From contig CM059432.1 of the NCBI GenBank assembly GCA_030390025.1, positions 43,154,001-43,218,000 of the forward strand: a stretch of DNA of 64,000 nt. The letters run 5' to 3'. This DNA comes from Squalus acanthias. Its lineage: Eukaryota. Below the pieces are notes generated by a model. The model was not told where the DNA came from and did not search any database. It saw only the letters and a list, made by a program, of their open reading frames with translations. Numbering within the stretch: the first letter of the stretch is position 1; every line of letters begins with the position of its first letter. This document shows, in pieces, positions 2,548 through 61,031 of this stretch. A program made the translations under genes and the position numbers.

Positions 2548-3393
2548 GGGCTGGAATTTGCCAATGGGGAGCTTTTGGAGGCGGGACTCCCACTCGTCGG
2601 GCTTCAGTCCCGCCTCCATCAACTTCTGGCCAACCCATGCTATTTTCCCTTGCTTGACCTTGTTAAGCCCGCCCAGCGGGCTTAGCAGGCCAATTAAGGG
2701 AAAGTTGGTTACAGAGAACGTCAACGTATGACGTTTCATCTGTCAAAAATTTTTGACAGATGAATTGTCATCGTTTGACAGCTCTGTGAAGCTGTCAAAC
2801 ACTGACATTCTCTGTAGTTTGATGAGTTCTTGAATTCAAGACCTCATCAAACCTCTTTCTTTTGCAGAAATTAGATGGTTGTTGCAGTGGAGAATGCAAC
2901 GGCCATCTGTCATCTCTACCGCAGAGGTGCGAGACTCTCCGCATACCCACCGACTGAAGCCTGCAGGAAGAAACAAAGGTGAGTACACTTTTTCTAAGAC
3001 TTTCCACTTACCTCAAATACTCACCTCTCCACACTTGCACCCATCACTTACCTCCACAGCACACTTTTGGACCCCTCCAACCCCCGCAGACCCACTACTC
3101 GCCTCAGTGACCCTGGTGGTGTTCGGAGCCTTCGGGAAGCCCGCACTTGTGTGGGCAAAAAGGGGATAATCCTATTTTCTGCCTGTTAACTACCTGTTAA
3201 CAGGCAGTTAAGTGGCTGTAATCCCTTCCTGCCTCAAAGGAGATGGGACCCGGCGTGGGACGGCTACCCGTCTCCTGGCAAGATGGAATGGAGGCGGGTT
3301 GGGGGCGGGTTGGGCACCCGCCCCCAAATTCTGGCATTTTCCCAGCAGTTCCGCCTCTAAACCCGCCTCCCCAAGGCTGGCAAAATCCACCCC
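2548..3393 (+). mobile_element. Harbinger-type MITE, family M1 (hairpin-array core)
   Basis: TIR GGGCTGGAATTTGCC / GGCAAAATCCACCCC; TAA TSD at 2545-2547 and 3394-3396; subterminal CCCGCCTCC repeats; homologous to 3410, 12369 and 39253. Confidence 0.88.
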
Positions 3394-3409: not shown

Positions 3410-4202
3410 GGGCTGGATTCTCTGAATGGAGACATGTTGGAGGTGGGACTGCTGCTTGCCGGGTCTCAGTCCCGCCTCCATCATCTTCTGGCCAACCAGC
3501 GGGATTTTCCCCTGATTGACCTTGTTAATCCCGCCCTGCGGGCTCAGCAGGCCAATTAGGGGGAAGTCACTGACAGAGCACGTCAACTTCTGACGAGCCA
3601 TCTGTCAAGATTTCTTGAAAGAAGAAATGTCAGCGTTTGACAGCTCTGTGAAGCTGTCAAACACTGACATTCTGTGTAGTTTGATGAGGCTTTGTGTTCA
3701 GGATTCATCAAACCTTTCTACTTTGTAGAAATCAGATGACTGTTGGTTCGGAGGATCCAACAGCCAGTCTGTGAAATCTACAATGAAGATGTCGGGACTC
3801 CGGATCCAGAGCGGCTGAAGGCTGGAGGCAGAAACAAAGGTCAGTGAACATTTTCTAACACTTTACATTCACCTCACATACTTACCACTCCACACTTGCA
3901 CCCATCACTCAACTCTACATTGTACTTTCAGACCCCGCAGACCCCCGCAGACCTCATACTCGACTCCTCCACCCCGACGGGGTTCTCCGAGGTCGGGAAG
4001 CCTGCACTTGAAAAGGTAAAATGGGACTAATCCTTTGTTCTGCCTGTTAACTACCTGATGGCAAACCCACCCCCATCCCACCTCCTGGCAAAAGGACACA
4101 GAGGCGGGATGGGGGCAGGTTTGCCACCCGCCCCCGATTTCTGCAACTTTACCGGCAGTCCCGCCTCCATACCCGCCTCTCGAGGCTGGCAAAATCCAGC
4201 CC
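3410..4202 (+). mobile_element. Harbinger-type MITE, family M1
   Basis: TIR GGGCTGGATT / AATCCAGCCC; TAA TSD at 3407-3409 and 4203-4205; colinear with 2548-3393. Confidence 0.88.
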
Positions 4203-12368: not shown

Positions 12369-13204
12369 GGGCAGAATTTTCATTGACCCGTGGAGGCGGG
12401 TTTGGAGGCATGTGGGGTGGGAAAATAGCAGATTCGGGGGTCCCGAACCCACCCCGCCCCCAACCTGCCTCCATGCCAGTTTCACAGGAGGCGGGTACCC
12501 GACCTGTGCTGGGACCCGCCTCCCCAAGGCGGGAAGGGGATTAGTGCCAATAAACTGCCTGTTAACATGTAGTTAACAGGCAGTTTTTTGCCTAATCCCT
12601 ATTTTTGGCCCTGAAGTGTGGGCTTCCCGACAGGTCCGAACCACGCCGATTTAGCGAGGCGGACCGTCGGTCTGGAGGGCTTGGAGGGGTCGAGATGTCC
12701 GGTGTGCAGGTGAGTGATGGGTGCATGAGTGCAGAAGTAAGTGTGTTTGGTGTGTGTAAAGTGTTTTAAGAACTTGTACTTACCTTAACTTTGTCCTGCA
12801 GGCTAAGGTGTCGGGAGTCCCTCACATCCACGGCACAGAAAGCAGAATGGCCGCAGAGCTGTCAAAAGCTGCAGTCTCTGCTTTCTGTGCTGGATTGATT
12901 TCTAACTGAGTCTAAGTACAGGGACTCATGTTAGAAATCATATTGTCAGTGTTTGACAGCTTCACAGAGCTGTCAAACGCTGAAATTTCATCTGTCAAAA
13001 GCTCTTGACAGATGACATTTCAATGGCTGTCGTCACCTGTATCCAAGGGACCCTTGATTGGCCTGCTAAGCCCGCTGGGGGGGGCTTAACAAAGTCAATC
13101 AAGGGAAAATACAGTGGGTTGACCACAAGTCGATGGAGGCGGGACTACAACCCAAAAAGTGGGAGTCCCGCTTCCATCACGTCCCCATTGACAAAATCCA
13201 GCCC
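12369..13204 (-). mobile_element. Harbinger-type MITE, family M1 (inverted)
   Basis: TIR GGGCAGAATTTT / AAAATCCAGCCC; TTT TSD at 12366-12368 and 13205-13207; TGACAG palindromes at 12944-13017. Confidence 0.85.
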
Positions 13205-26857: not shown

Positions 26858-27225
26858 ATAGAGTCATAGGGGTAGAAATTAGGTCGCGCCCCATTTGGGG
26901 CGCAAATATCGTCCGCGCGCAAATATTAGCGCCTGGCGCTAATTATCGGCACTGACAGGAAACTTCACTTTTACCGCCCCGGGAGGTGAGTGGAGCGCTA
27001 AATTAGGCGCTGCACACCTCTCTTAAGGCGCAAAGGCCTAGGAGTGAGGCGCTAACTCAGCGCACGAGCGCAGCGCAGCTGCTGCCAGTTAGCGCGGGAA
27101 CACAGACACACTGGCGCCGGACACTTCTTAAAGCGGGGGGGGCCACTTGCTCCCCAGCCACACCCTGCTCATTGCAGCCTTGAATCTCAGCCTGGAGAGA
27201 CCTGTAATCCATTTTGCTGCCAAGC

Positions 27226-29438
27226 ATGGAGAGGGTGAGAGAACGCGCTCATCGCTTCACCGAGCGGGCCTTGGATGCTCTGGTTGACGCAGTGGAGCGC
27301 AGACGATGCATGCTGTTCCCAGAGAGTGGCAGGAGGCCTTTGCCACGCGAGTTCAGAAGAGTGTGGAGGGAGGTGGCTCAGAGCGTCTCCTCCAGGAGCA
27401 TGGTGCCCAGGACCCATGTCCAGTGCCGCAAAAAGTTCAACGACCTCACTCGGGTCGTCAGGGTGAGTGGCTTTTTCTCAATACCTCTCCATCCCTCCAT
27501 CTCAACCTCACTCTATGGCCAGAGGGTCTTAAAACCCCAATGCACAACACTCATCCAACACCTATGGCCCTTTCATCAAACACACACACACATTCCACAC
27601 TTTGCATACAGTAAGGGCTATTCACCTATGGGAGGCACATCAGGCAAGACCATGGCTGCATACAGTAAGGGCTATTCACCTATGGGAGGCACATCAGGCA
27701 AGACCATGGCTGCATATTGTAAGGGCTATTCACCTATGGGAGGCACATCAGGCAAGACCATGGCTGCATATTGTAAGGGCTATTCACCTATGGGAGGCAC
27801 ATCAGGCAAGACCATGGCTGCATATTGTAAGGGCTATTCACCTATGGGAGGCACATCAGGCAAGACCATGGCTGCATATTGTAAGGGCTATTCACCTATG
27901 GGAGGCACATCAGGCAAGACCATGGCTGTATATTGACTCAGATGCTGTTCTTTTTCTTGCAGGCTAAGCTGGCTCATAATCGGAGACAGCAGCAACGGAC
28001 GGGTGGAGGGCGGCTTCAGCTGCAACCCCTCAGCGATCTGGAGGAGCGCGTCCACAGGATTGTGGCAAGCCGGGTGATCGGTCCCGTCGCCACTGGAGAC
28101 GCCGACCCCGTTGTGGACAGCAATGGTAAGGTCATCACCTTTTTGTCCTCTGTCCTTCCACTTGTCCCTCACAATACCAGCCTTTGACACTTTCAATCCA
28201 ACTTGCTAACTCGCTGCACTTATTCCTCCCTTACGGCCACCCTGTCCTCACGCTAAAGCCACTCTTGTACCTCCCTGCTTTCAGATGGTGATTCACCAGC
28301 TGAGGAGATGGTCCCTGAAGCTGCCACTGGGAGTGATGCTGCAGCTGAGGAGGAAGAGGAAGCCGGAGCATCAGTGCCACCCTCTCCCGAGGAAGCCCAT
28401 GGCCACACTGGGAACACGCCTTCCCCGGAGGGGAGCAGGGGGGAAGGGGCTGATGATGGTGAAGTTCCAGGACCCAGCGGGCTGCAGCAACGCCATGGGG
28501 GGGGGAGGGAAGAACGGGGGAGCAGGGGGGAAGGGGCTGATGATGGTGAAGTTCCAGGACCCAGCGGGCTGCAGCAACGCCATGGGGGGGGGAGGGAAGA
28601 ACGGGGGAGCAGGGGGGAAGGGGCTGATGATGGTGAAGTTCCAGGACCCAGCGGGCTGCAGCAACGCCATGGGGGGGGGAGGGAAGAACGGGAGCCTTCT
28701 CCCCAGAGGGAGAGTATGCCAGACACTCCTAATGCAATGGACGCAGAGGAGGAGCGGCTGATTGCAGAAATGAACAGCCAGGCGGTGGTCATGCACACTG
28801 AGCTCATGGGTGCAGTGGGAAGGGTGCCCGAATGCATTGAGGCACTGGCAAGGAGTGTGGAGCACTTCGCTGTAGCACAGGCGGATGCCACACTAAAGCT
28901 TACTGCTGCAATTCAGTCACTGGCTGCCAGGAACCCATCTGAGCCTGCTCTCATGCAGACTCAGATTGAGGCCACGCGAGCACTGACTGCTGCCATCCTC
29001 GATGGTTCGTGCACATGTCCCCGGGGCTGTCACCGCGCCGCAGCAGGCCAGCAATCTGTTCTCAGGCAAATTGCTCCGGATGCTGAAGTGCTGCCCCGTG
29101 GGAGTGCCAGTGTGTCGGGCGAGCAGGGAGTTGCTGTCCTCTCTCACGATGACAGCATTCCTGCTGCCAACACTGTCACTTCTCCACTGCACTTGCCACC
29201 GCCTGTAGGACAGACTGCTGCCGCCCATGCAGAGTTGGTGCAGTCTGCAGCCGGGCCCTCCAGGCCCAGAAGTGGTCGAGGCCGTCCTTCAGGGGCATCT
29301 GCAGTGTCAGGGTCTGACAAGCAGCAGCCTTCCACCAGCCTTGCTGCAGCCACTGAGGTCCCATTACGGAGGAGCAGTAGGGTTAGAAGGGGGGAAGTGC
29401 GCAAGGGAAGGAGATCACCCTCGAAGGGCAAAAAGTAG
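27226..29438 (+). CDS. Harbinger Myb/SANT-like DNA-binding protein, exons 27226-27462, 27963-28125, 28285-29438 (517 aa)
   Basis: MERVRERAHRFTERALDALV...WREVAQSV...QCRKKFNDL; GTGAGT and GTAAGG donors with pyrimidine-rich CAG acceptors; the spliced frame is open; the 163-nt exon 2 has the same length as in copy A; basic C-terminus. Confidence 0.88.
27604..27933 (+). repeat. 54-bp minisatellite, 6 copies, in Myb intron 1
   Basis: Unit gcata(ca/tt)gtaagggctattcacctatgggaggcacatcaggcaagaccatggct. Confidence 0.97.
28431..28691 (+). repeat. 87-bp in-frame tandem repeat, 3 copies, in Myb exon 3
   Basis: GSRGEGADDGEVPGPSGLQQRHGGGREER three times. Confidence 0.97.
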
Positions 29439-29732
29439 GAGGTGTGCCAAAATGCTGGTCATTTTTTTATTAAAGGCCGAGGTTCATGGCCCAACTTTTG
29501 TTTAGTGTTTTGGACATTATCTCCAGGTTGTGAGAACCAGTTATGTTATTGACTGTTTTTTTGTGTTTATTTCTATGAGTTTGTCATGAGGAATTGACAC
29601 ACACAGAGTTTGTACAATAAATAAGTTTCTGTATTCAAAATATACATGGCTGGTGGTTGGAATTATTGGTGCCTTGGCCGGCTTAGGGGTTGCGTGCTGG
29701 GTTGATTCGTGTTTGTAGCACTGGCAGGGGTC

Positions 29733-30893
29733 CTAGAAGCGGCTTGCTATTAGTCGTTGACGGACGGCCCTTGCAGTTTGACCATTGTGGGCCGCCCTCC
29801 TGCCTTGGTGCTGCTGCTGATCATCGTCCTCGGCCTGTTCCTCCTCTTCCTCCTCCTCCTCTTGTGGTGCTGCAAGGCCTGGTGGCATTGGCTGCGTCCT
29901 GAGGATTGCCATGTTGTGCAACATGCAGCACACCACTACGAATTTGGAAACTTGCTCAGGCGAGTACTGCAGGGCTCCTCCGGAATGGTCCAGACAGCGG
30001 AATCGTTGTTTGAGCACGCCGATTGTGCGCTCAATAATGTTCCTGGTTGCTTGTTGGCTTTCCTGGTACCGCAGCTCAGCAGGGGTGTTTGGCGCACGGA
30101 GCGGTGTCATCAGCCAGGTGCTCAATGCGTACCCCTTGTCCCCCAGAAGCCAACCAACTGGCTGATGCGGTGCCTCGAAAATTTCTGCCACAGTACTCTG
30201 GCGCAGGATGAAAGCATCGTGGCAGCTGCCCGGATAGTGGGCATTGACAGCGAGAATCACCTGTCTGTGGTCACAGACCAACTGCACATTCAAGGAATGG
30301 AACCCCTTTCTGTTCCGGAACTCCTCTGCATTCTCTCGCGGAGCACGCAAAGCCACATGCGTGCAGTCAATGGCGCCCTGCACCATGGGGAAGCCCGCTA
30401 CCCTCGCAAAGCCCATAGCACGGTCATGCTGCTTGTCTGGGGTCATAGGGAAGGAGATGAAGTCTCGTCTCCTTGTGAAGAGGGCATTGGTGACCTGCCG
30501 GATGCAGCGATGCACCGCAAACTGGGAGATATTGGCGAGGTCCCCAACAGCAGCTTGGAATGAGCCAGTGGCGTAGAAGTTCAAGGCCACTGTGACCTTC
30601 ACTGCCACCGACAGAGACGTCCTGGACCTCAGCTGAGGCTGCAGATCTGGCTGCAGCAGGTGGCAGAGCTCAGTGACCACCTCCTTGCTGAATCGCAGCC
30701 TTCGCAAACACAGCTCCTCGGACATGTGGATGTAGGAGAGCTGTTCACGATATACCCTGGGAGGGTAAGCTCTCCTGTACATGCGCCTGATGGGCCTCCT
30801 CCGTCTGGCCATCATTGCCACTCTCTGTCTGCGTCTCACTCTGCTCCGATTGAGCTGGAGCAGGACGACGCCCCCAATCATTGCAGCCCCCAT
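29733..30893 (-). CDS. Harbinger (HARBI1-like) DDE transposase, 386 aa
   Basis: [64 protein letters not shown]; uninterrupted ORF. Confidence 0.95.
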   Translation of the reverse strand: MGAAMIGGVVLLQLNRSRVRRRQRVAMMARRRRPIRRMYRRAYPPRVYREQLSYIHMSEELCLRRLRFSKEVVTELCHLLQPDLQPQLRSRTSLSVAVKVTVALNFYATGSFQAAVGDLANISQFAVHRCIRQVTNALFTRRRDFISFPMTPDKQHDRAMGFARVAGFPMVQGAIDCTHVALRAPRENAEEFRNRKGFHSLNVQLVCDHRQVILAVNAHYPGSCHDAFILRQSTVAEIFEAPHQPVGWLLGDKGYALSTWLMTPLRAPNTPAELRYQESQQATRNIIERTIGVLKQRFRCLDHSGGALQYSPEQVSKFVVVCCMLHNMAILRTQPMPPGLAAPQEEEEEEEEQAEDDDQQQHQGRRAAHNGQTARAVRQRLIASRF

Positions 30894-31408
30894 CTTCTCT
30901 TTGCCAGAAAAGTAATGAGGTACAGCAACGAAAGTAGCAGCAAAGTTAGGATGAACTAGGCAAAACTACCTCACAAAGCGTTGAGTCAATGTGGAAGTCT
31001 CTCTCTCTCTCTCTCCGAATCTCTCTCTCTCTCTCAGAACGAGTGGTGCATAAATGTCGACCACAGAAAAAGACAGGAAGAGGCCCCCTTTAAATAGCGC
31101 CCCCCCCAGCCCCAGACCGATTGATAACGTTCCAGTCTTCCGGTCGTTGGAAGCGCCAGGCGGTAAGGCAGGGGGCGCCACTCAATTTCCGCTCCAGGGC
31201 GCCCCAAGGGCGGTGCACCATGGACTGATGTCACAATCTGCACGCGCAGGTGGTCGCAGCGGTAAGTTTTAGCGCCGCCGCACAATCTCAAGTTAAGTTC
31301 TCGAGCGGCGCAAACAGCGCTGCGCCCGGGCGTTAGCGCCTTAACGCCCCATTAGCGCCCATTTAAGGCGCTAACGGGAGGCGCAACCAACTGAATTTTT
31401 ACCCCATA

Positions 31409-39252: not shown

Positions 39253-40130
39253 GGGCTGGATTTTACCTGCCGAGAGGAGTTGGGGGCGGGACTGCTGCCT
39301 TCTGGGTTCTAGTCCTGCCCCCAGCGACGTCCGACACACAGACGCTATTTTCCCCTGATTGGCCTTGTTAAGCCCACCCTGTGGGCTTGCTAGCCAATTA
39401 AGGGAAAGCCGGTGTCAGATGACATCAGTTGATGATGCTTCATCTGCCGATTTTCTTGGAGGGACAGGAACCATTTATTTTTGACAGATGATTTGACAGT
39501 GTTTGACAGCATTGAGGTGCTGTCAAACACTGACAATCACTGTACAAAGGTGAGCCCTTGCTCCCAGGCTCTCCAATGACTCTCTCCTTAGGATAAAACA
39601 GATGGCTGCTGCAGGTAAGGGTACAGAAGCGATCTGTCACTTCTCCCAATGAGGTGAGGGCACACAAACACTTCAAAGCTTGTCACCTACAGAAATATCT
39701 AAACACATTTAAAATGACTTTCCCAACATTTCCTTACCTCTGATACTCACCAGTGTCCCATTGCATCCTTCACACCACTTCTGCAGCTGTCATCTATACA
39801 CAAACATTATAACAGACCCACAGCACGCCTCACTTACTCTAGCGGTGTTCCCCAACGTCAGGAAGCCCGCAGCAGAAGTCTCAAAATGGGAAAAAGTCTC
39901 TTAACAGCTGTTAACTACCTGTTAACAGGCAGTTAAGTGGCTATAATCCTCTTTCCGCTGCTAGGAGTCGGGTCCCTGCACAAATCAGGTACCTGACTCC
40001 CGGGAAAATTAGTTGGAGGCGGGTTGGGAGCGGGTTTGGGACCTGCTCCCATTCTTTTTGATTTTCCCAGCAGTCCCACCTCCAGTCCCACCTCCAGACC
40101 CGCCTCCTCAGGGCTGGTAAAATCCAGCCC
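39253..40130 (+). mobile_element. Harbinger-type MITE, family M1 (diverged)
   Basis: TIR GGGCTGGATTTTACC / GGTAAAATCCAGCCC; TAT TSD at 39250-39252 and 40131-40133. Confidence 0.9.
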
Positions 40131-43374: not shown

Positions 43375-44805
43375 GGGGGCCATTTTCTGACGTCGGAGGA
43401 GGCGGGTTTGGAGGCGGGAAAGGCGGGAAAATCAAAATCGAAGAGGTCGGGTTCAGAACCCGCCTCCAACCCACTTCCGCGGGATTTTGCCAGTGCCGGT
43501 TTTGGAGGTCGGGAAATGCTCCCGCCTCCAGGGGCCATTGCGCCATTAAAGATCCTTAAATGCTCATTACGGGCCTCTCTAAGCCTATTTTGAGAGGCCC
43601 TCGTGATTTTTCCAGCTTTTCGGTGTGATCCACGCACCTCCTAAACCACGCCAGGTAAACCTGGCGGGTTGACTCGTGGGTGGCCTCCTCACTGCTGCAG
43701 GTCTAACAAGACATCGTTTATTGCAGCAAGGGTTACTTGCAGGTGCCAGACCTTGGTTTTAAAAGGTCTTTGATCAGTTTTAGAAGGCCTTCCAAAGTCG
43801 GAGGTGCTGCAGCTTGACTCCATCAACTGTGGGACCTCTTTGGAAGGCCCGCTCCCCGCTTGCAATGAGCGCTTCCCCAAATGAGGCATCTACAAGCAGC
43901 ATGGAAACCATTCGTTTTCTTTTTGCATGGACCTCAGATGAGGATGAGGAGGAGGAGGAGAAGGATCTGGAGGAGGAGGAGGAGGAGGAGGAGGAGGTCA
44001 GAGCGCCAGTGTATCGACCAGCGGCAGCGGCAGCATGCGAGCACATGGCTGCCCGGGATGCAAGGGATGAACTTATCATGACCAGATTTACATAGGTTGC
44101 CCAAGTTGGCACATGTCCTTGGCTCCATCCTAGGACATCATTGACAATGGACATGACTCTCTGGCCTCCATTCACTCAGGCCACCAACCTGACAACGCAA
44201 GTGTGGCGGTGCCCGCAATGTGGAGCTGCCTAAGGCGAAAGAACAGATGGCATAACGCCAACATTTTGGCTTCAAATCATTTTAATGCTTTCCAACAGGG
44301 ATGGCATTTAATCAATACACAGAAACAGTCTCCCAATCTGCACACAAATCTGGAGGTTATATCCCTTGCCAGCTGTACCCACACAGCCTTGGTTTCTTTG
44401 GCAGGCCTCTTCCTCCGAGATGAGTGGAAGAGCACCTCCATGCTAGCTGTCACCCCATCAAACAACATTTGCAGCGCCTCATCCAAGAGCCTCGGGTAGG
44501 CCCTTGCCTTGGAATTGGACATAGTGGTTTCTCAAAGATGTTGGAGGTGGTGCAGGAGACGCAGAAATGCTGTGGAATGAGCCAAGGGAGCAAGAAGCCA
44601 TAAAATCAGACTGGAAAAGTGCTGTCAAAAGAGGCGAGTTTCAGTCCCAAAACACTAATTGAGCAAGGGCATCCCACACCTCTGAAATCAAGTGGCCAAT
44701 CATGGGAAAATTGCAAATATTTGAAACCTATCAGTGGAGGCGAGTTTCAAACCCACCCAAACTGAAACCCGCCTCCATCTCGCCTCCAGTGGGAAAATCG
44801 CCCCC
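43375..44805. mobile_element. Harbinger element E (both genes internally deleted)
   Basis: TIR GGGGGCCATTTTC / GAAAATCGCCCCC; TTG TSD at 43372-43374 and 44806-44808; fused transposase stubs at 43901-44095 (+); Myb exon 1 remnant at 44337-44522 (-). Confidence 0.88.
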
Positions 44806-45525
44806 TTGGAGCTGCTATTGATGCTGATTCTTGGGGGGCGAATTTCCCAGCCCCGAGGAGGCGGGTTTGGAGGCGGGACAGTTGGCAAAATGGCAAAAAC
44901 TGAGGGTGGTTTCGGAACCCGACTCCAACCCGCCTCCACGCAATTTTGCCAGAGGCGGGTTTGATGAGCGCGATTCGGTCCTGCCTCCATCAGTCGGGCG
45001 AGGTAGTTAAGACCCTTAAATAGTAGTTAAGGGCCTCTATAATCCTATTTTGATAGGCCTTTGTTATTTTACCACATTTTCAGCATGTTGCACAGACCTC
45101 CTAAACCACGCCAGCTAATCCTGGCAGCTTGACAAGTGGGTGGCCTCCTCACAGCTGCAGCTCCACCATTAAAACCGAGCTTTCATCAGGGAGCAGTTGC
45201 AGGTGGCAGAACTTTTGTTTCACAGGTCTTTCAGCACTTTTAGCAGGCTTACCGAAGTCGGAGGTGCTGCAGTGGGGGCGTGTCAGGTGGTTTTCGTGTC
45301 AGGAACCCGACTCCGATGTGAAGTGGGAAAAAAGTGCAATTTTCCCCTAATTGGGCACTTGATTTCCAGCGTGTGGGAACCCCTGGCCCAATTAGTCTTT
45401 CTATCCTGAAAGTCGCCTCCGATGACGTCATCAGTGCTGCTGGATTTAAGGCCTGCAAGCTGCCTTGCTTCTTCTGGAGACTGCAAACTTTATGGCCATT
45501 GTTGTGATCGCTTCATTCAGCAAAT

Positions 45526-54000: not shown

Positions 54001-55668
54001 TGCCATTAACTCATCTATTTTGTTACGAATGCTACGTGCATTCAGATAGAGAACTTTCAAATATGTTTTGTGACACTTAGTTCCTGCTTTTGCCCTTTTT
54101 ATTACTTTACCTTTTACTCCGTACCTTCTGCCCCTTCCTGACACACTCTGGTTTTTAATTTCCCCACTGCTACCTAAGTCTATGACCTTCTCTGTTGTCA
54201 TTTTTATTATTTGCTCTCTAGGAACCTCCCCCCCACTAGTTAGTTTAAAGCCCTCTCTACAGCCCTAGTTATATGATCCGCCAGGACTCTAGTCCCAGCA
54301 CTGGCTAAGTGAAGCCCGTCCCAACGGAACAGCTCCCTCCTGCCCCAGTACTGGTGCCAGTGTCCCAGGAAGCAAAACCCATTTCTCCCACACCAGTCTT
54401 TGAGCCACTCATTTAACTCTCTAATTTTATTTGTCCTAGCCAAATTCGCTCGTGGCTCAGGTAATAATCCAGAGATTAATACCCTTGAGGTTCTGTTTTT
54501 TAATTTGACCCCTAGCTGCTCATACTCCTTTAACAGAACCTGCTTCCTTGTCCTATCTACGTCGTTTGTACCAACATGGACCACGACAACTGAATCCACC
54601 CCATCCCACTGCAAGTTTCTTTCCAGCCCAGAGGAGATGTCCTTAACCCTGGCACCGGACAGGCAACACAGCCTACGGGACTCTCGCTCTCGGCTGCAGA
54701 GAACTCTATCTATCCCCCTAATAATACTATCCCCTACCACTACAACATTTCTATTTACTCCCCCCTCTTGAATGGCCCCCCGTTCCACGGTGCTGTGGCC
54801 AGGTTGCTCATCCTCCCTGCAGTCCCTGCTCCCGTCCCCACAGGGAGTAAGAACCTCGAACCTGTTGGACAAGAGCAAGGGCTGCGGCTCCTCCAACACT
54901 ACCTCCTGGATCCCCGTACCTGCCTCACTCGTAGTCACACCGTCCTGTCCCTGACCATGGGCTACATCTGAATTAATTAACTTCATAGGTGTGACCACCT
55001 CCTGAAACACAAAGTCCAGGTACTTCTCCCCCACCCTGATGTGTCGCAGTGTCTGAAGCTCAGACTCCAGCTCATCAATACGGAGCTGGAGTTCCTGTAG
55101 CAGCAGACACTTGTCACAGATGTAATCACCGTGAGCCTCAATGGGGTCCACCGGCTCCCACATCTCGCAACAGTAACACATCACCTGCTCCATTCTATGT
55201 AATTAATTAAAAAAGAATTATTGTTAGTTATGGACACTCTCTGCCCGATTATAGATGCTAGTATCCCCTCTAATTAATTGGATTTAAATTAAATCAATCC
55301 CTCTAAATTACACCAGTTAAATGGTTTACCAACAGTCACTCTGCACCAGAAAGGCCTTATTAACTATAACCCACAGAGTTTAAGTTTAAAAAGAGAGAAA
55401 TACTCACCAACCAATTACTTACCTGCTTTCTGGTGACGTCACACCTCGATTATTTTTACCTCTCTCCCTCCCTCCGAGTTCGGAGACTGGTCCCGCCTTA
55501 CCTGGTCTCTGGAGCCTTTTAAACCCTTTGCCGCCGCCTCGCCTCACACAGGTCCGCCGCCGCACCAGGAACCTCACAAAGATGGAAAAAGGAAGGCACA
55601 CCTCCCTCCCCGAACTCCCTCACTCACCAAACTCGCAGCTTAGCACTCTATTCCAAATCTGCACTCCG
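51019..55668 (-). mobile_element. Full-length CR1 LINE (4650 bp); ORF1 intact, ORF2 frameshifted around 52470-52580
   Basis: ORF2 halves at 52549-54201 (APE) and 51256-52449 (RT); (TTCTTATG)n tail; 5' end homologous to 35621. Confidence 0.95.
54240..55193 (-). CDS. CR1 ORF1p (Zn finger/leucine zipper plus SGNH esterase), 317 aa
   Basis: CYCC...CDKC, LQELQLRIDELESELQTL, VGDSIIR, HVGTND, DGLHL. Confidence 0.9.
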   Translation of the reverse strand: MEQVMCYCCEMWEPVDPIEAHGDYICDKCLLLQELQLRIDELESELQTLRHIRVGEKYLDFVFQEVVTPMKLINSDVAHGQGQDGVTTSEAGTGIQEVVLEEPQPLLLSNRFEVLTPCGDGSRDCREDEQPGHSTVERGAIQEGGVNRNVVVVGDSIIRGIDRVLCSRERESRRLCCLSGARVKDISSGLERNLQWDGVDSVVVVHVGTNDVDRTRKQVLLKEYEQLGVKLKNRTSRVLISGLLPEPRANLARTNKIRELNEWLKDWCGRNGFCFLGHWHQYWGRRELFRWDGLHLASAGTRVLADHITRAVERALN

Positions 55669-56681
55669 TGAGCCTGAAGCAAAAAAGTTGAGTGCGGTGG
55701 TGACTTTGACGGCCACTGGTAAGGAGTGTCCACCTGCTCCTCTGGGCTCCAGCTCTTGCTGCAGCATTGCGCAGATGTCGCCCACTACCTCTCGTGAAAG
55801 TCGGAGCCTCCTTTGGCACTGCTGCTCAGTCATGTTGAGGTAGCTGATACTCTGTCTGTAGACCCTGTTTTGGGGGTATCTCCTGCACCGACAGGCTTCC
55901 ATGCGCTGGCGCCTTCTGGCCTGTGCAGCTTCAGGTGGGTGAGCAGCAGCTTGGAGCTCCTGCTGTTGCTCCTGCAGTTGGTGCTGCTGTTGTTCAGGGT
56001 TCTGCTGCTGCCGCGGCTGGTCTTCATCCGAATCTGATGTCCAGGAGGAAAGGAAATAAATGGTTCCCATTCTTCTGGTAGATACCTCAGTTGAGGAAGT
56101 GCTCATTCAAGGTGGGGAGAGGGGTTTCCCAGGAGGTCACACTGGAGATGGGTGTTAGGCTCCAAACTTCCACAACAATGAGTAGGCCTGCTAAAAGTTC
56201 CCCCAGACCTGAGACAACAAAGTTCTGCCACCTGCAAATGATGATTGCTGAAAACTCCTTTTTAATGATGGCGCTGTAGCGGTTAGTAAGAAGTCCACTT
56301 GTGATGCCGCCAGGATTCACTGGCGTGTTCCAGTGGAGACGTGCAGCACGTGGGAAGTGTTAAAATCAGAAAGGCCTCTCAAAATGGGATTATAGAGGCA
56401 ATTAAGTGGTTGTTAAGGGCCTTAAGGGCCTATCCGCCTCTTGGAGGCGGGATGGAAACGGGGTCAGAAAACAGGCATGTGGGAAAATTGCTCGGAGGCG
56501 GGATGGAGGCGGGATCGGGCCCGCCTGCCTTTTTTTGTGATTTTACCACCTCACACGCCTCCAATCCCGCCTCCTCGGGCCTGGCAAAATCGAGCCCTAT
56601 CTCTCAACTGTGGGACCTTCTTGGAAGACCCTCTCCCAGCTTGGACTGTGAGCTTCCCCAACGGAGGTATCTGCCAGCAGC

Positions 56682-56910
56682 ATGGGAACCATTTATTTCC
56701 TTTCACCATGGAGCTCAGATTCGGATGAGGAGCAGCCACGGCAGCAGCAGAACCAGGCAGCTCAGCAGCAACAGCAGCAGGAGCCCCAACCTCCTGCTCA
56801 CCCACCTGATGCTGCACAGGGCAGAAGGTGCCAGCGCATGGAAGCACGTCGCCGCAGGAGATACCCCCCTCTCAGGGTTTACAGACAGAGCATGAGCTAC
56901 CTCAACATGA
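56682..56910 (+). pseudogene. 5' stub of the element F transposase
   Basis: [17 protein letters not shown]...RVYRQSMSYLNMT matches the D N-terminus, then jumps to 3' non-coding sequence. Confidence 0.8.
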
Positions 56911-57082
56911 CTCTCTGGCCTCCTTTCACTCTGGCCACCAACCTGACCACGCAAGTGTCGCGGAGCCTGCAATGTGGAGCTGCCTAAGGTGAAATAACAG
57001 ATGCCATCACGCCAACAGTTTGCCATCACCTCATTTTTATACATTCAAACAGAAACAATCACCCAAGAGCCTACCCCTGTGA

Positions 57083-59012
57083 CTAATGGTGCATTATTTT
57101 TCTCTTACGCGTGCTCCTACGTGGTGCTCCCCCTGTGGCTTCTGCAGAAGTGGAGGCTCCTTGCTCACTTTGATGCTGCTCCTGCTTCGACACCTTTGGC
57201 GGGCGTTCTCTGGGTTTACGAGCCTGTGAGGGCTCGCCAAACGTCTGCTCATCCTGCGGCAGTGCAGGGGCTGAGACATCCATCTCAGTTGGGTGCGGAC
57301 TCTGGTGGGGCTCTGACCGAGGGCTACGCAGTGTCATGGAAGTGTGAGTGCTTGGAGAGGAGCCCCCACTTCCTTGTTCTCTGCCACCAACTTCCCTCTC
57401 ATGGGTCAGGTCCACCTCAGCACTTGCAAGTGGCTTGAGAACACCTTGCTGCACATCAGGGGGGCCATGGGGACCCGTATCTGCACTGGCAGTCCTACTC
57501 AAAAGGACTTCCATGAAGCTCTGGATTCTCTGCTCCATAGCTGCCCATCGCTCCTCCAGAGATGTCATTCTATTCTGAACATTCACCATGTTTTCCTGAC
57601 ACTGGCAACTTATTTCCTCCATGGCCGTAGCCAGCCTTTCCACGGAGGTTGCCATCCTTTCCGTGGTGCTGCGTATATGCGCCATTGCCTCCCCAACGGC
57701 ACTGCTCATGCTAGAGTTGGACTCCTCCATCCTCTCCACACTCGCAGTGAACCTGGAGACAAGACCTGTCAGAGACTCCTGCAGCTGTTTCTGGAGTTCC
57801 AGCACTGCTCTCCTTCTGGATGGACCCAGAGGCACAGGGTCCACATGCAGCGGAGCAGAGCTAGGAGTGTCCTGCGACCTCCGCCGAGGACTCTCCACTG
57901 CTGTCCCTGTCTCCACCACCTGCTGATGCTCACCTGACAATACTACTCTATGTCCCGAAGGTCCCACCAAGGTGTGCGTATCTGCGCTGGTGCTGGGTGC
58001 GCTTACATCTGCTGATGCTGCGTCCTCAGAGGTTGCAGGTTCCCCTGAGGAATCTTCCTGCTCAGCCTCTTCCTTGTCAACAGTGGGGGGGGGGGGGGCT
58101 CTGTGGATGGTCCTGTGGGGGAGTAAAGGCATGGGTTAAACATTTGACGGAAGTGTGGCATGCACATGCAATAATGCAGATGCTCAAGTGGCATTTTAAT
58201 AATGTACACCAGCAGCCATTTCAGTCACTCAAGCAGTGTAAATGAGAGAGACGTAAAACTATTCTGTCACCAGCTTGCTCTGCATTGCCCGTCTGTCCGT
58301 CCCCCACTTCCACTTCCACCTCTGCGCCAGCGATGTCAGGGCCGCCTCTTCAGCCTGGGTGAGATGGGCGAGGGAAGGTGGCCCTCCTCCTGTCTTCACC
58401 CTTTCCCTTCTATTGTGGGCTCTCTTTTCCTGCAGTGAGGGAGACAAGTGGAGTTGGAGTGAGAATGATGGAGTGAGTGTAGAGCGCCCAGAGCATAGAT
58501 ACTTAGAAGGAGACAAAGATGGAGTGAGGTTCCATATCCAAGGGCCCTCCCTGTGCGTTGTTAGTCGTTGTCATTGCATAACATCGAAAGGGAGTGTGAG
58601 GGCAGCATAGTCGAATAGTGAAGTGATTGGGTTCATAGAGTGAGAGGGAATGGTGAAGGGTGCAAGGGTTGTAAGGGTAAAGTGGGATGTGGAGGAGGAG
58701 GTTGACAATGCAGAGTGCTGGTGATGAGAGGAGAAGGGGAGCAGAAGGAGGGTCAAGCTGAAAGTATACTCACTTTGCCTGATCTTACAAGGTCATTGAA
58801 CCTTTTATGGCACTGCAGCAATGTCCTGCTGCACACTGATCTGGAGGTTATATCCCTTGCCAGCTGGACCCACACAGCCTTGGTTTCTTTGGGAGGCTCT
58901 TCCTCCCAGATGAGGGGATGAGCACCTCCCTGCTGGCTCTCACCCCCTCAACCAGCATACCCAGCACCTCATCGGAGAACCTCGGGGAGGCCCTTGCCTT
59001 GGAGTTGGCCAT
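57083..59012 (-). pseudogene. Myb/SANT-like gene of F, exons 59012-58774, 58429-58271, 58112-57083; frameshifts in exons 1 and 2, exon 3 open
   Basis: Homologous to the B/D Myb genes (EKRAHNRRERVKTGGGPP; TERMATSVERLA). Confidence 0.83.
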
Positions 59013-59028
59013 TCTTGAAGGAAATAAT

Positions 59029-59791
59029 GGCCCGAAACATTAGACCTAATACGGGAGATTACGCACTGTGTACTCTCACGTATTAGGTCTCGAAGTGCCG
59101 GTTTCCTGCATGCACTGCGCATGCGCGGGAAACTGGCACTTCAGGTATTGCGAAGGGGACGGTTCCTAAGTGAACCGCGTGCGTGCTACAGGTTGCGCGC
59201 ACGCAGCGCACTTCGTTTTTTTTTCAGGTTTGAACGCGCAGGTAAGTGTTGAAGATTTTACACATGAAGAAAGCAGGCGTAAGACCCCCTTTTAACAAGG
59301 TAAGTAGTTAATTAAGTATTTTAAATTTTTTTCAACAGGTTTATCTTTTTTAGAGACTTTAAATAAAGGTAAGTTTATTTTTATAACTTTTAAAAAGAAT
59401 TTAAATGTTTTCAAAAATTTAAATTTTTGTTTAAAGTGGTTAATTTATTTAACTATAGTTATTTTATTAATGTGATGGCTTTTTTTAAAATTTAATTGAG
59501 GTTTAGCTGTTCTTTTGGGGGCTTGTTGTATTCATAGTTTTGACAGCTCTTGCTGTCAAAACTATGAATGAAAGATGGTGTGCTGCCATTGGCTCTAACT
59601 GGCCCACGTGATCCCAGAGGTCGCATCAAATTAACTGCGCCTCTGGGACACGCACACACTGCGCGCCGGCACCAGGGAGAGGCCCAGGAACTGAAGTTCG
59701 TGTGGGCCAAAACCATAAAGGCAGGCGCGGAGTGCGATATCGCGGGGGATCCTTACCCCCGCGGCAACCATCGAAGTCCAATTTCTGGGCC
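59029..59791 (+). mobile_element. Harbinger-type MITE, family M4, with hairpin cluster and splice signals
   Basis: GGCCCGAAACATTAGAC / GTCCAATTTCTGGGCC; AAT TSD at 59026-59028 and 59792-59794; interrupts the Myb 5' region of F. Confidence 0.8.
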
Positions 59792-61031
59792 AATAGCTTG
59801 GAGGTGGTGCAGCATCGACCAAAAACCAGTGGAATGAGCCAAGGCAGCAAGCAGCCCTTAAGTGAAGCTGGATAAGTGACGTCAGCAGAGGCGAGTTTCA
59901 GTCCCAAAAGACTAATTGGCCCAGGGGAACCCACACCTCTGAAATCAACTAGCCAATTAGGGGAAAATCGCAAATGTTTCCCACCTCTCAGTGGAGGCGG
60001 GTTTGGAACCCACCCAAACCGAAACCCGCCTCTAACCCACCTCCATTGGGAAAACTGCGCCCTAGATTCCTGGTTTGGAGCAAAATATTTAAAAATTCAG
60101 TTCAGAACCAACTCAAAGAAATCCAATTTAAAATTGTCAGGTACCCCTCCAAGACTCAACTTGATATCTGCAAACTATAATTCTTACGACAGACTTGAAA
60201 TCAACCCTTTCTCAAGTTCTGATCATGTTCCGAGATTGGCCTGCTCTAAAATTGAATTACGTTGCCAACATTGAACTGAATGTTAATGCTAAGAGGCATC
60301 CAGGGACTTTTATCTGCTTGGCATTCGAGGAGAAAACCTATCAGACAGTGGCATAGAGTACCACCTCGTTGATCATCATTTTTTTCCCAGAGAAGAAAGT
60401 GATTTTATTAAAATTGAACTCTCTAAATCCACTCCTAATTCTGATATAGCTAAACATTTTGCTGGAATGTCACACCTTGAAGATATTTCTGGATTATTTG
60501 GTCTTCATTTGAAATTTCTTTTACAAAAAGGATAACATTACTGAATAATAATGTAGATTAGATGGCTCTCTACGTTCTGCATGACCTTTATGTGTGATTC
60601 TCTAACATTCTTTACACCTTCACTGATTTATAATTTTACTTGTCATTTTGAATGAGGTGTATAGAGTATTTGATTTGTTTTCTCTTTTGCAGTCGGAGAC
60701 CATAGGTTAATTGTCTGAGTACATACAGGCAATAAGGAACCTTACCCTCCACTAGTGCTTATAGGAAAATCATGGGCACTCTGCCTGCAGTTTCCAGATG
60801 TGCGCTGGCAGGAGGCAAGGTTTCTCAGTGCCAGTGCATACTCAGAAAATTTAGCCTTATGAAATGTATAAAGGAAGTATTTGATTTGTTTAGTCTTTAT
60901 GACCAGGACACAAAAAAATAAAAATAGCAAATGGTGGATAGTCAGAATAGGACCTCAGAAATGAAACATTGTTTAGTCTGGTTTCTGAATTAGTTCTGTC
61001 AGTTCTGTGAAAGATTTGCAATCAAATCTAT

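Follow-up and report, generated by a model that had tools for sequence, protein, structure and literature searches.

The element M4, which lies at 59029-59791, raises the question whether a short transposon carries a structured RNA, a usable set of splice sites, or only the traces of a longer ancestor. The original prediction had described a chain of hairpins, a T-run and several splice sites inside this element, and had seen in them either a transposon-borne structured non-coding RNA or a device by which the element is spliced out of host transcripts or traps them. All coordinates refer to the window, i.e. the whole stretch of 64,000 nucleotides that was analysed.

Identity, neighbours and abundance of M4

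M4 is a non-coding Harbinger-type (PHIS) cut-and-paste element of 763 bp with a 3-bp target duplication. Both ends read GGCCC...GAAA. Comparison of the two ends placed a short, imperfect terminal inverted repeat (TIR) at 59029-59041 on the + strand and its counterpart at 59779-59791 on the - strand; they match at 8 of 14 ungapped positions and start with G, PHIS repeats starting with G or A. The target-site duplication (TSD) AAT was identified on the left (59026-59028) by flank comparison and an empty-site joint and on the right (59792-59794) by flank comparison, in agreement with the 3-bp TSD of PHIS elements. The empty site was found in public contigs as a joint 59027>59795 with one letter between (three contigs of run X5, one of X13), and a paralog without the insertion, at 44338-44806, runs collinear with the flanks of M4. 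Other copies meet new flanks at the same terminus (loose ends at 59039), and their consensus flanks end in AAT or ATT. According to the available text of Han et al. 2015 (PMC4482050), the TSD ANT marks the Pangu group and TWA the PIF/Harbinger group. As AAT fits ANT and not the strict TWA rule, the subgroup was left unassigned and M4 is filed, on sequence grounds, under PHIS; the other elements of the window have the TSDs TAA, TAT, TTT and ATA. The consensus flanks of the other copies are A-rich before an AWT duplication, like 59015-59028 here, which may point to a target preference extending beyond 3 bp.

The longest ATG frame of M4 encodes 74 amino acids, tblastn gave no match inside the element, and no coding partner sharing its ends was found within the 64-kb window, whose coding Harbingers have similar GG..GAAATT ends. 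M4 is thus short, non-coding and present in high copy number as PHIS-type MITEs are, an ordinary element class with an instructive anatomy. The short derivatives of Harbinger-1M_cIno (bioRxiv 10.64898/2026.05.26.728016) and the groups of Han et al. 2015 (PMC4482050) are, in the available text of both sources, likewise short and non-coding with TIRs starting with G; these non-autonomous PHIS elements share with M4 the 3-bp TSD, the high copy number and the presence of DDE_Tnp_4 and Myb/SANT elements alongside. M4 differs from them in its very short, imperfect TIRs, and a palindrome chain and a cluster of splice signals are absent from those descriptions as far as the available text extends. A further Harbinger-rich vertebrate genome with expressed elements is that of Pleurodeles waltl, for which the accessible parts of two reports (PMC5741667, PMC11872487) describe expression of Myb- and Harbi-domain groups and circRNAs linked to hAT, LTR and nMITE pairs; those parts mention neither a splice cassette nor a structured RNA within MITEs of the Harbinger type. 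A literature search, with most subscription journals, Repbase and Dfam outside its range, found no paper that, as listed, dealt with a Harbinger element of such anatomy. The elephant shark is listed as being without Harbingers in the available text of PMC9179366, which proposes other cartilaginous fish for examination.

The insertion of M4 took place about 16 nt upstream of the start codon (ATG at about 59012) of a decayed, frameshifted Harbinger Myb/SANT gene, which occupies 56905-59025 on the - strand and is antisense to the M4 donors. The host element resumes with its leader and end at 59795-60063 (-), where it is collinear with the empty paralog (44338-44806). Between 26869 and 31405 lies a full-length Harbinger with a Myb_DNA-bind_5 frame and a DDE_Tnp_4 frame; the first 64 of the 120 relatives listed for its transposase came from sharks and rays, which points to an elasmobranch as the source of the DNA. 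This Harbinger has the TSD ATA, an open transposase frame of 410 codons and a three-exon Myb gene with a 54-bp tandem repeat in the first intron. Elsewhere (55648-56912), a Harbinger end at 56600 is framed by two oppositely oriented copies of the transposase 5' part, at 55828-56142 and 56610-56912, which are 80% alike.

M4 is also abundant. Of the 22 listed runs, 18 contain between 35 and 82% of its words, and at least six coded organisms are represented among these 18. One DNA run contributed 12,234 contigs to a 1,061-base stretch comprising M4 and its flanks, a number which is not a copy count. By this evidence from sequence words M4 is a large family common to several organisms. Two runs recorded as RNA contain 0.09 and 0.06 of the M4 words. 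Pattern scans of viral contigs found 0 and 0 loci. Matches in metagenomes (0 and 2 loci) and prokaryote genomes (8 loci) were treated as chance, all ten spanning 18-25 bases only.

Splice-like signals on the plus strand

The splice-like signals described in the original prediction are indeed present, non-random as a battery and confined to one strand. The T-run at 59216-59224 (T9) is followed by CAG and forms the acceptor-like site A1 (59216-59227, +). The three donors conform to AGGTAAGT, which starts at 59240, 59298 and 59367 (GT at 59242, 59300 and 59369). The first, D1 (CAG|GTAAGT, 59239-59247, +), lies 14 nt after A1. A further acceptor-like tract, A2 (59308-59338, +), combines a branch-like TTAAT (59308), a T7 tract and a CAG ending at 59338; D1 and A2 would delimit an intron of 97 nt. 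D2 (AAG|GTAAGT, 59297-59305, +) is located only 39 nt before A2 and D3 (AAG|GTAAGT, 59366-59374, +) 30 nt after it, and no T-run-CAG acceptor follows D3 inside M4. The first + donor is 213 nt inside the left end, and the last T-run acceptor is 453 nt from the right end.

With patterns chosen after the sequence had been seen, shuffled sequences contained AGGTAAGT with a mean of 0.014-0.022, and three occurrences were reached in 0 of 3000 whole-element and 0 of 3000 110-nt-block dinucleotide shuffles; the two T-run-CAG|G acceptors, tested under the same reservation, gave a P of about 0.0003 or less. The + strand of the rest of the 64-kb window holds one AGGTAAGT, and no GTRAGT was found on the - strand of M4. 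The signals lie in a middle part with a GC content of 0.24, compared with 0.54 and 0.56 in the arms, and the left arm shows a CpG observed/expected ratio of 1.34 versus 0.43 for the window. AATAAA is not enriched on either strand of M4, and the + strand AATAAA at 59362 is absent from 99% of the family depth. Comparison of the M4 battery with six Myb intron-type stretches revealed no likeness (z -1.4 to 1.4).

Other copies of the family allowed a view of how these motifs vary. In a divergent subfamily, represented by 60 contigs of X5 and 8 of X12 with a loose end at 59231, GTAAGT still stands 14 nt after A1 despite changes in 6 of the 10 letters before D1. Variable places, expressed as per-position shares of family depth, were displayed for 40 of 183, with 29 of these inside M4; none of the 29 fell into the 35 motif positions, a result with P 0.26 that leaves 143 further places not displayed. 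The length of the T-run is variable across the family, and one subfamily is without it (loose ends at 59229 in X9, X13 and X12).

A parallel in layout with a second element family, M1, had been suggested, and it held for all four M1 copies (2548-3393, 3410-4202, 12369-13204 and 39253-40130; TSDs TAA, TAA, TTT and TAT, respectively), in which hairpins, donor cluster, acceptor and TGACAG hairpin recur. Like M4, M1 has 3-bp W-rich TSDs and hairpin-rich arms, but beyond the TGACAG core the two families share no sequence, and M1 has one conserved GT-rich intron of 64-65 nt where M4 has the AT-rich series A1-D1-D2-A2-D3. The GTRAGT..YAG pair of M1 spans 64, 64, 65 and 64 nt in the four copies, in a region where 55 of 154 ungapped columns are invariant; its variation falls on the degenerate letters, R in the donor and Y in the acceptor. 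Three M1 copies contain a branch-like CTNAC whose only variable letter is N; in two of them this motif can also be read as a donor from the opposite strand. Scored as an antisense Myb intron, the M1 battery gave mixed values (z 0 to 5.3) which are partly compositional.

Origin of the splice-like signals

We hold, by a slight balance of probability, that the palindromes of M4 are strand-neutral and that its splice signals are what has been kept of a coding parent's spliced 5' leader, namely promoter, short exons and mini-intron. M4 would then be a deletion-type derivative that kept the promoter and spliced leader of this parent and could depend for its mobilisation in trans on a DDE transposase acting with a Myb/SANT protein, like those in the window. 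The CpG-rich left arm would act as promoter, D1-A2 would be the 97-nt leader intron, and D3 would once have been spliced to the coding exon of the parent and now be orphaned. The palindromes may act as DNA, either as protein-binding arms or as cruciforms, and may be kept by selection or by arm-to-arm conversion. A CpG-rich arm followed by donors and an AT-rich tract is the usual appearance of a vertebrate promoter, first exon and intron.

The model draws on the promoter-like left arm of M4, on a donor (AG|GTGAGT) in the leader of the Harbinger at 26869-31405, which is placed 118 nt inside its left end and ahead of the Myb ATG, on GTRAG sites in the leader of a CR1-like LINE and on the GTRAGT..YAG pair kept by M1. 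As the window yielded no coding parent for M4, the leader origin rests on analogy. The LINE leader (55200-55650, -) contains six GTRAG donor-like sites, then an AT-rich tract before ORF1, and has the same promoter-donor look as M4. Against the model, the position of A1 upstream of D1 and the short distance from D2 to A2 are unaccounted for, and the transposase-bearing element that ends at 56600 and shares the end of M1 is without a strong donor in its leader. The missing likeness of the M4 battery to the Myb intron-type stretches and the lack of internal joints in the putative RNA runs count against it as well. Moreover, the conservation of D1 in the divergent subfamily, together with that of the M1 intron at 76% identity, suggests selection after the loss of coding capacity, which goes beyond a passive relic.

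It is unlikely, if clearly conceivable, that the signals are a splice cassette under selection in the non-coding element itself, where splicing or U1 binding would stabilise or shield transcripts containing the element, or where D3 and A1 would donate to or trap exons of the host, to the benefit of the element's persistence. The non-random, one-strand motifs, the 14-nt spacing of D1 in its altered context, the absence of the 29 displayed variable places from the motifs and the mini-intron kept in all four copies of the unrelated M1 agree with such selection. The needs of the parent account for the same pattern, however, the absence of variable places has the P value and the undisplayed remainder given above, and one subfamily manages without the T-run acceptor. 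Furthermore, no internal M4 joint was found in three runs whose RNA label is guessed and whose contigs drop rare forms, show presence and not absence, and reveal neither strand nor start nor end (X9, X13 and X12 with 471, 518 and 757 contigs; 1,746 in total), and among the 24 loose ends displayed out of 523, none lay at a donor or acceptor boundary as in a splice to a host exon. If the cassette were used, elasmobranch genomes would have in this very abundant repeat a source of ready-made promoter-exon-donor modules, and the question why non-coding DNA transposons keep splice signals would become directly testable. In its widest and somewhat less probable form, the idea would imply that unrelated Harbinger MITE families of sharks and rays each kept or evolved, after coding loss, a selected one-strand cassette of U1 sites and a minimal intron, serving as a spliceosome-recruiting shield or promoter-donor module for the protection or export of element RNA and for a rewiring of host transcripts at thousands of loci.

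We give little credence to a role of the GGTAAGT word and the TGACAG palindromes in DNA binding by the Myb/SANT protein of the element or a host factor, with an incidental likeness to splice sites. The full-length Harbinger does have GGTRAGT about 120-145 nt from each of its ends, and the TGACAG arms are invariant in all four M1 copies. The M4 word, however, is found 213-340 nt inside the element, on one strand and in the full MAG|GTAAGT context, and it alternates with two T-run-CAG|G sites; a DNA site predicts no acceptors, and the TGACAG arms are separated by a spacer of 4 nt in M4 versus 8 nt in M1. Across both families (2740-2800, 3602-3661, 12952-13011, 39482-39530 and, in M4, 59530-59569), the TGACAG/CTGTCA hairpins combine invariant arms with different loops, and one M1 copy shows a T-A to A-T change beside the loop. 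As a word, TGACAG corresponds to a TALE-homeodomain site.

Palindromes and the least probable readings

The hairpins named in the original prediction were recovered. Hairpin 1 (59042-59090) has a perfect 12-bp outer arm with 12 of 12 positions paired, the arms of hairpin 2 (59092-59142) match at 14 of 15 positions, and the TGACAG hairpin (59530-59569) is perfect, with 18 of 18 pairs and a 4-nt loop. The inner stem of hairpin 2 and the predicted three-way junction (59150-59216, +; inner stems 59160-59177 and 59177-59204) appear in the minimum free energy and centroid structures of the + strand, but are absent both from the - strand fold and from a local fold with a span of 80 nt. In addition, an AT-rich imperfect palindrome is located at 59386-59437, and the right arm (59607-59764) contains hairpins at 59607-59652, 59741-59763 and other places. 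The single GCGCATGCGC of the window, an NRF1-type motif, is located within hairpin 2 at 59117.

The first 201 nt of M4 fold on the + strand with -102.9 kcal/mol (z -8.1; 0 of 200 shuffles as good), the reverse complement of this end reaches z -9.3, and the right third has a comparably strong fold (z -9.2/-9.4). Five control stretches gave strand values of -1.3 to +1.4 in nine of ten cases and -3.7 in one. The ends of M1 fold with z -2.8 to -9.8, and its right-arm stems do so on both strands (-102.4 and -105.6 kcal/mol). A one-strand structural signal, i.e. a G-U bias or a stronger fold, was not found in M4; as modelled, its hairpins are real, strand-neutral palindromes at both ends and not a one-strand domain at one end. 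In M1, two-sided changes affect 5 of 71 pairs among the four copies (5 of 500 shuffles as high), and since all of them lead from Watson-Crick to Watson-Crick pairs they are strand-neutral. As judged from the copies, pairing in M1 seems to be maintained without a strand signature, which fits DNA hairpins or arm-to-arm conversion; these changes would also fit an RNA structure.

The G-U compatibility of the stems had been noted in the original prediction with the reservation that CpG decay can mimic it. At 59134 the other letter, C, makes up 90% of the X5 depth and converts the G-T pair 59100/59134 of hairpin 2 to G-C; at 59184 it makes up 83% and converts the inner-stem G-T pair 59184/59197 to C-G. 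In the copy studied here both are CpG-to-TpG changes, so that the two checkable inner pairs reflect private CpG decay and are Watson-Crick in 83-90% of the depth; this check covers these two pairs, with G-T at 59063/59069, 59107/59127 and 59150/59216, at stem ends or beside loops, outside it. The majority letters at 59159 and 59407 also restore Watson-Crick pairs. Variants at 59090 (83%) and 59538 (25%) would produce G-U on the - strand unless their partners, which were not displayed, change too. Finally, one outer-stem pair of the three-way junction is lost through a C>A change at 59214, which makes up 39% of the depth in X5 and 66-95% in the putative RNA runs; this outer stem and the T-run vary between subfamilies.

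It is very improbable that the left 190 nt of M4 are a structured non-coding RNA ending at the T-run, as the original prediction had proposed. The strong + strand fold with its three-way junction, the presence of M4 words in seven runs guessed to be RNA and the two-sided stem changes of the sister family M1 speak for it; the equal folding of the - strand and the right end, the CpG decay, the broken outer stem and the variable or missing T-run speak against it. A scan of the 64 kb with Rfam gave no match at gathering score and seven generic hairpins below threshold, a tRNA scan found none, and no Pol III A or B box was found on the + strand of M4. The ratio of X9 to X5 depth showed no excess over the 5' hairpins, depth figures of this kind being unable to rank the parts of the element. 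The lesson is that CpG decay in a single copy mimics G-U pairs of the RNA type, and that MITE palindromes mimic structured RNA.

In Drosha-type precursors the stem comprises about 33-35 bp and includes a lower stem. With 22 pairs in hairpin 2 and 18-19 in the TGACAG hairpin, and without a regular lower stem, neither was accepted as a microRNA precursor. On both strands hairpin 2 starts with G followed by AAGTGC (59092-59099 and 59135-59142), a sequence described in the available text of PMC5741667 as a stem-cell microRNA seed. This likeness is probably due to chance, because hairpin 2 has neither a Drosha lower stem nor an Rfam match.

Scarcely probable as well is a Pack-type origin, in which the AT-rich middle would be a piece captured from a host gene and would include two tiny exons: the drop in GC content relative to the arms and the alternation of acceptors and donors would fit, yet there is no long frame, and the cassette of M1 is built in parallel but unrelated in sequence. 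Shark genes would also not usually combine exons as short as 14 and 30 nt with introns of 39-97 nt.

It is extremely improbable and, for the + strand, close to refuted that M4 is a device of the Introner kind, removed from host mRNAs by splicing: M4 has canonical donors and acceptors and, on the - strand, a GGTAAG 35 nt inside the right end, but excision between the + donor and acceptor, 213 and 453 nt from the respective ends, would leave hundreds of bases behind, and the battery is antisense to the host gene at this locus. The clean removal of M4 from transcripts envisaged in the original prediction is excluded on these two grounds. Introners are, like M4, non-autonomous DNA transposons with splice sites, which according to the available text (bioRxiv 10.1101/2022.06.06.494994, PMC12130899) are carried or co-opted at the boundaries, so that mRNA length is kept or changed by few codons; the sites of M4 lie hundreds of bases inside. 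SOS splicing could likewise remove a DNA transposon with inverted ends from mRNA; in the available text of PMC12779559 its trigger is the pairing of the terminal repeats with one another, and it is apparently spliceosome-independent, which leaves no role for internal GT-AG motifs; compared with its substrates, M4 has a TIR match of only 8 of 14. Among the 13 joints listed for the contigs, seven skip the whole of M4 without GT..AG ends and look like empty paralogs, and the six internal ones all occur in a run guessed to be DNA. One X5 contig skips 59192-59338 with GT..AG ends and lands on A2; it was read as a deletion, being a single contig of depth 12 with a 6-letter microhomology.
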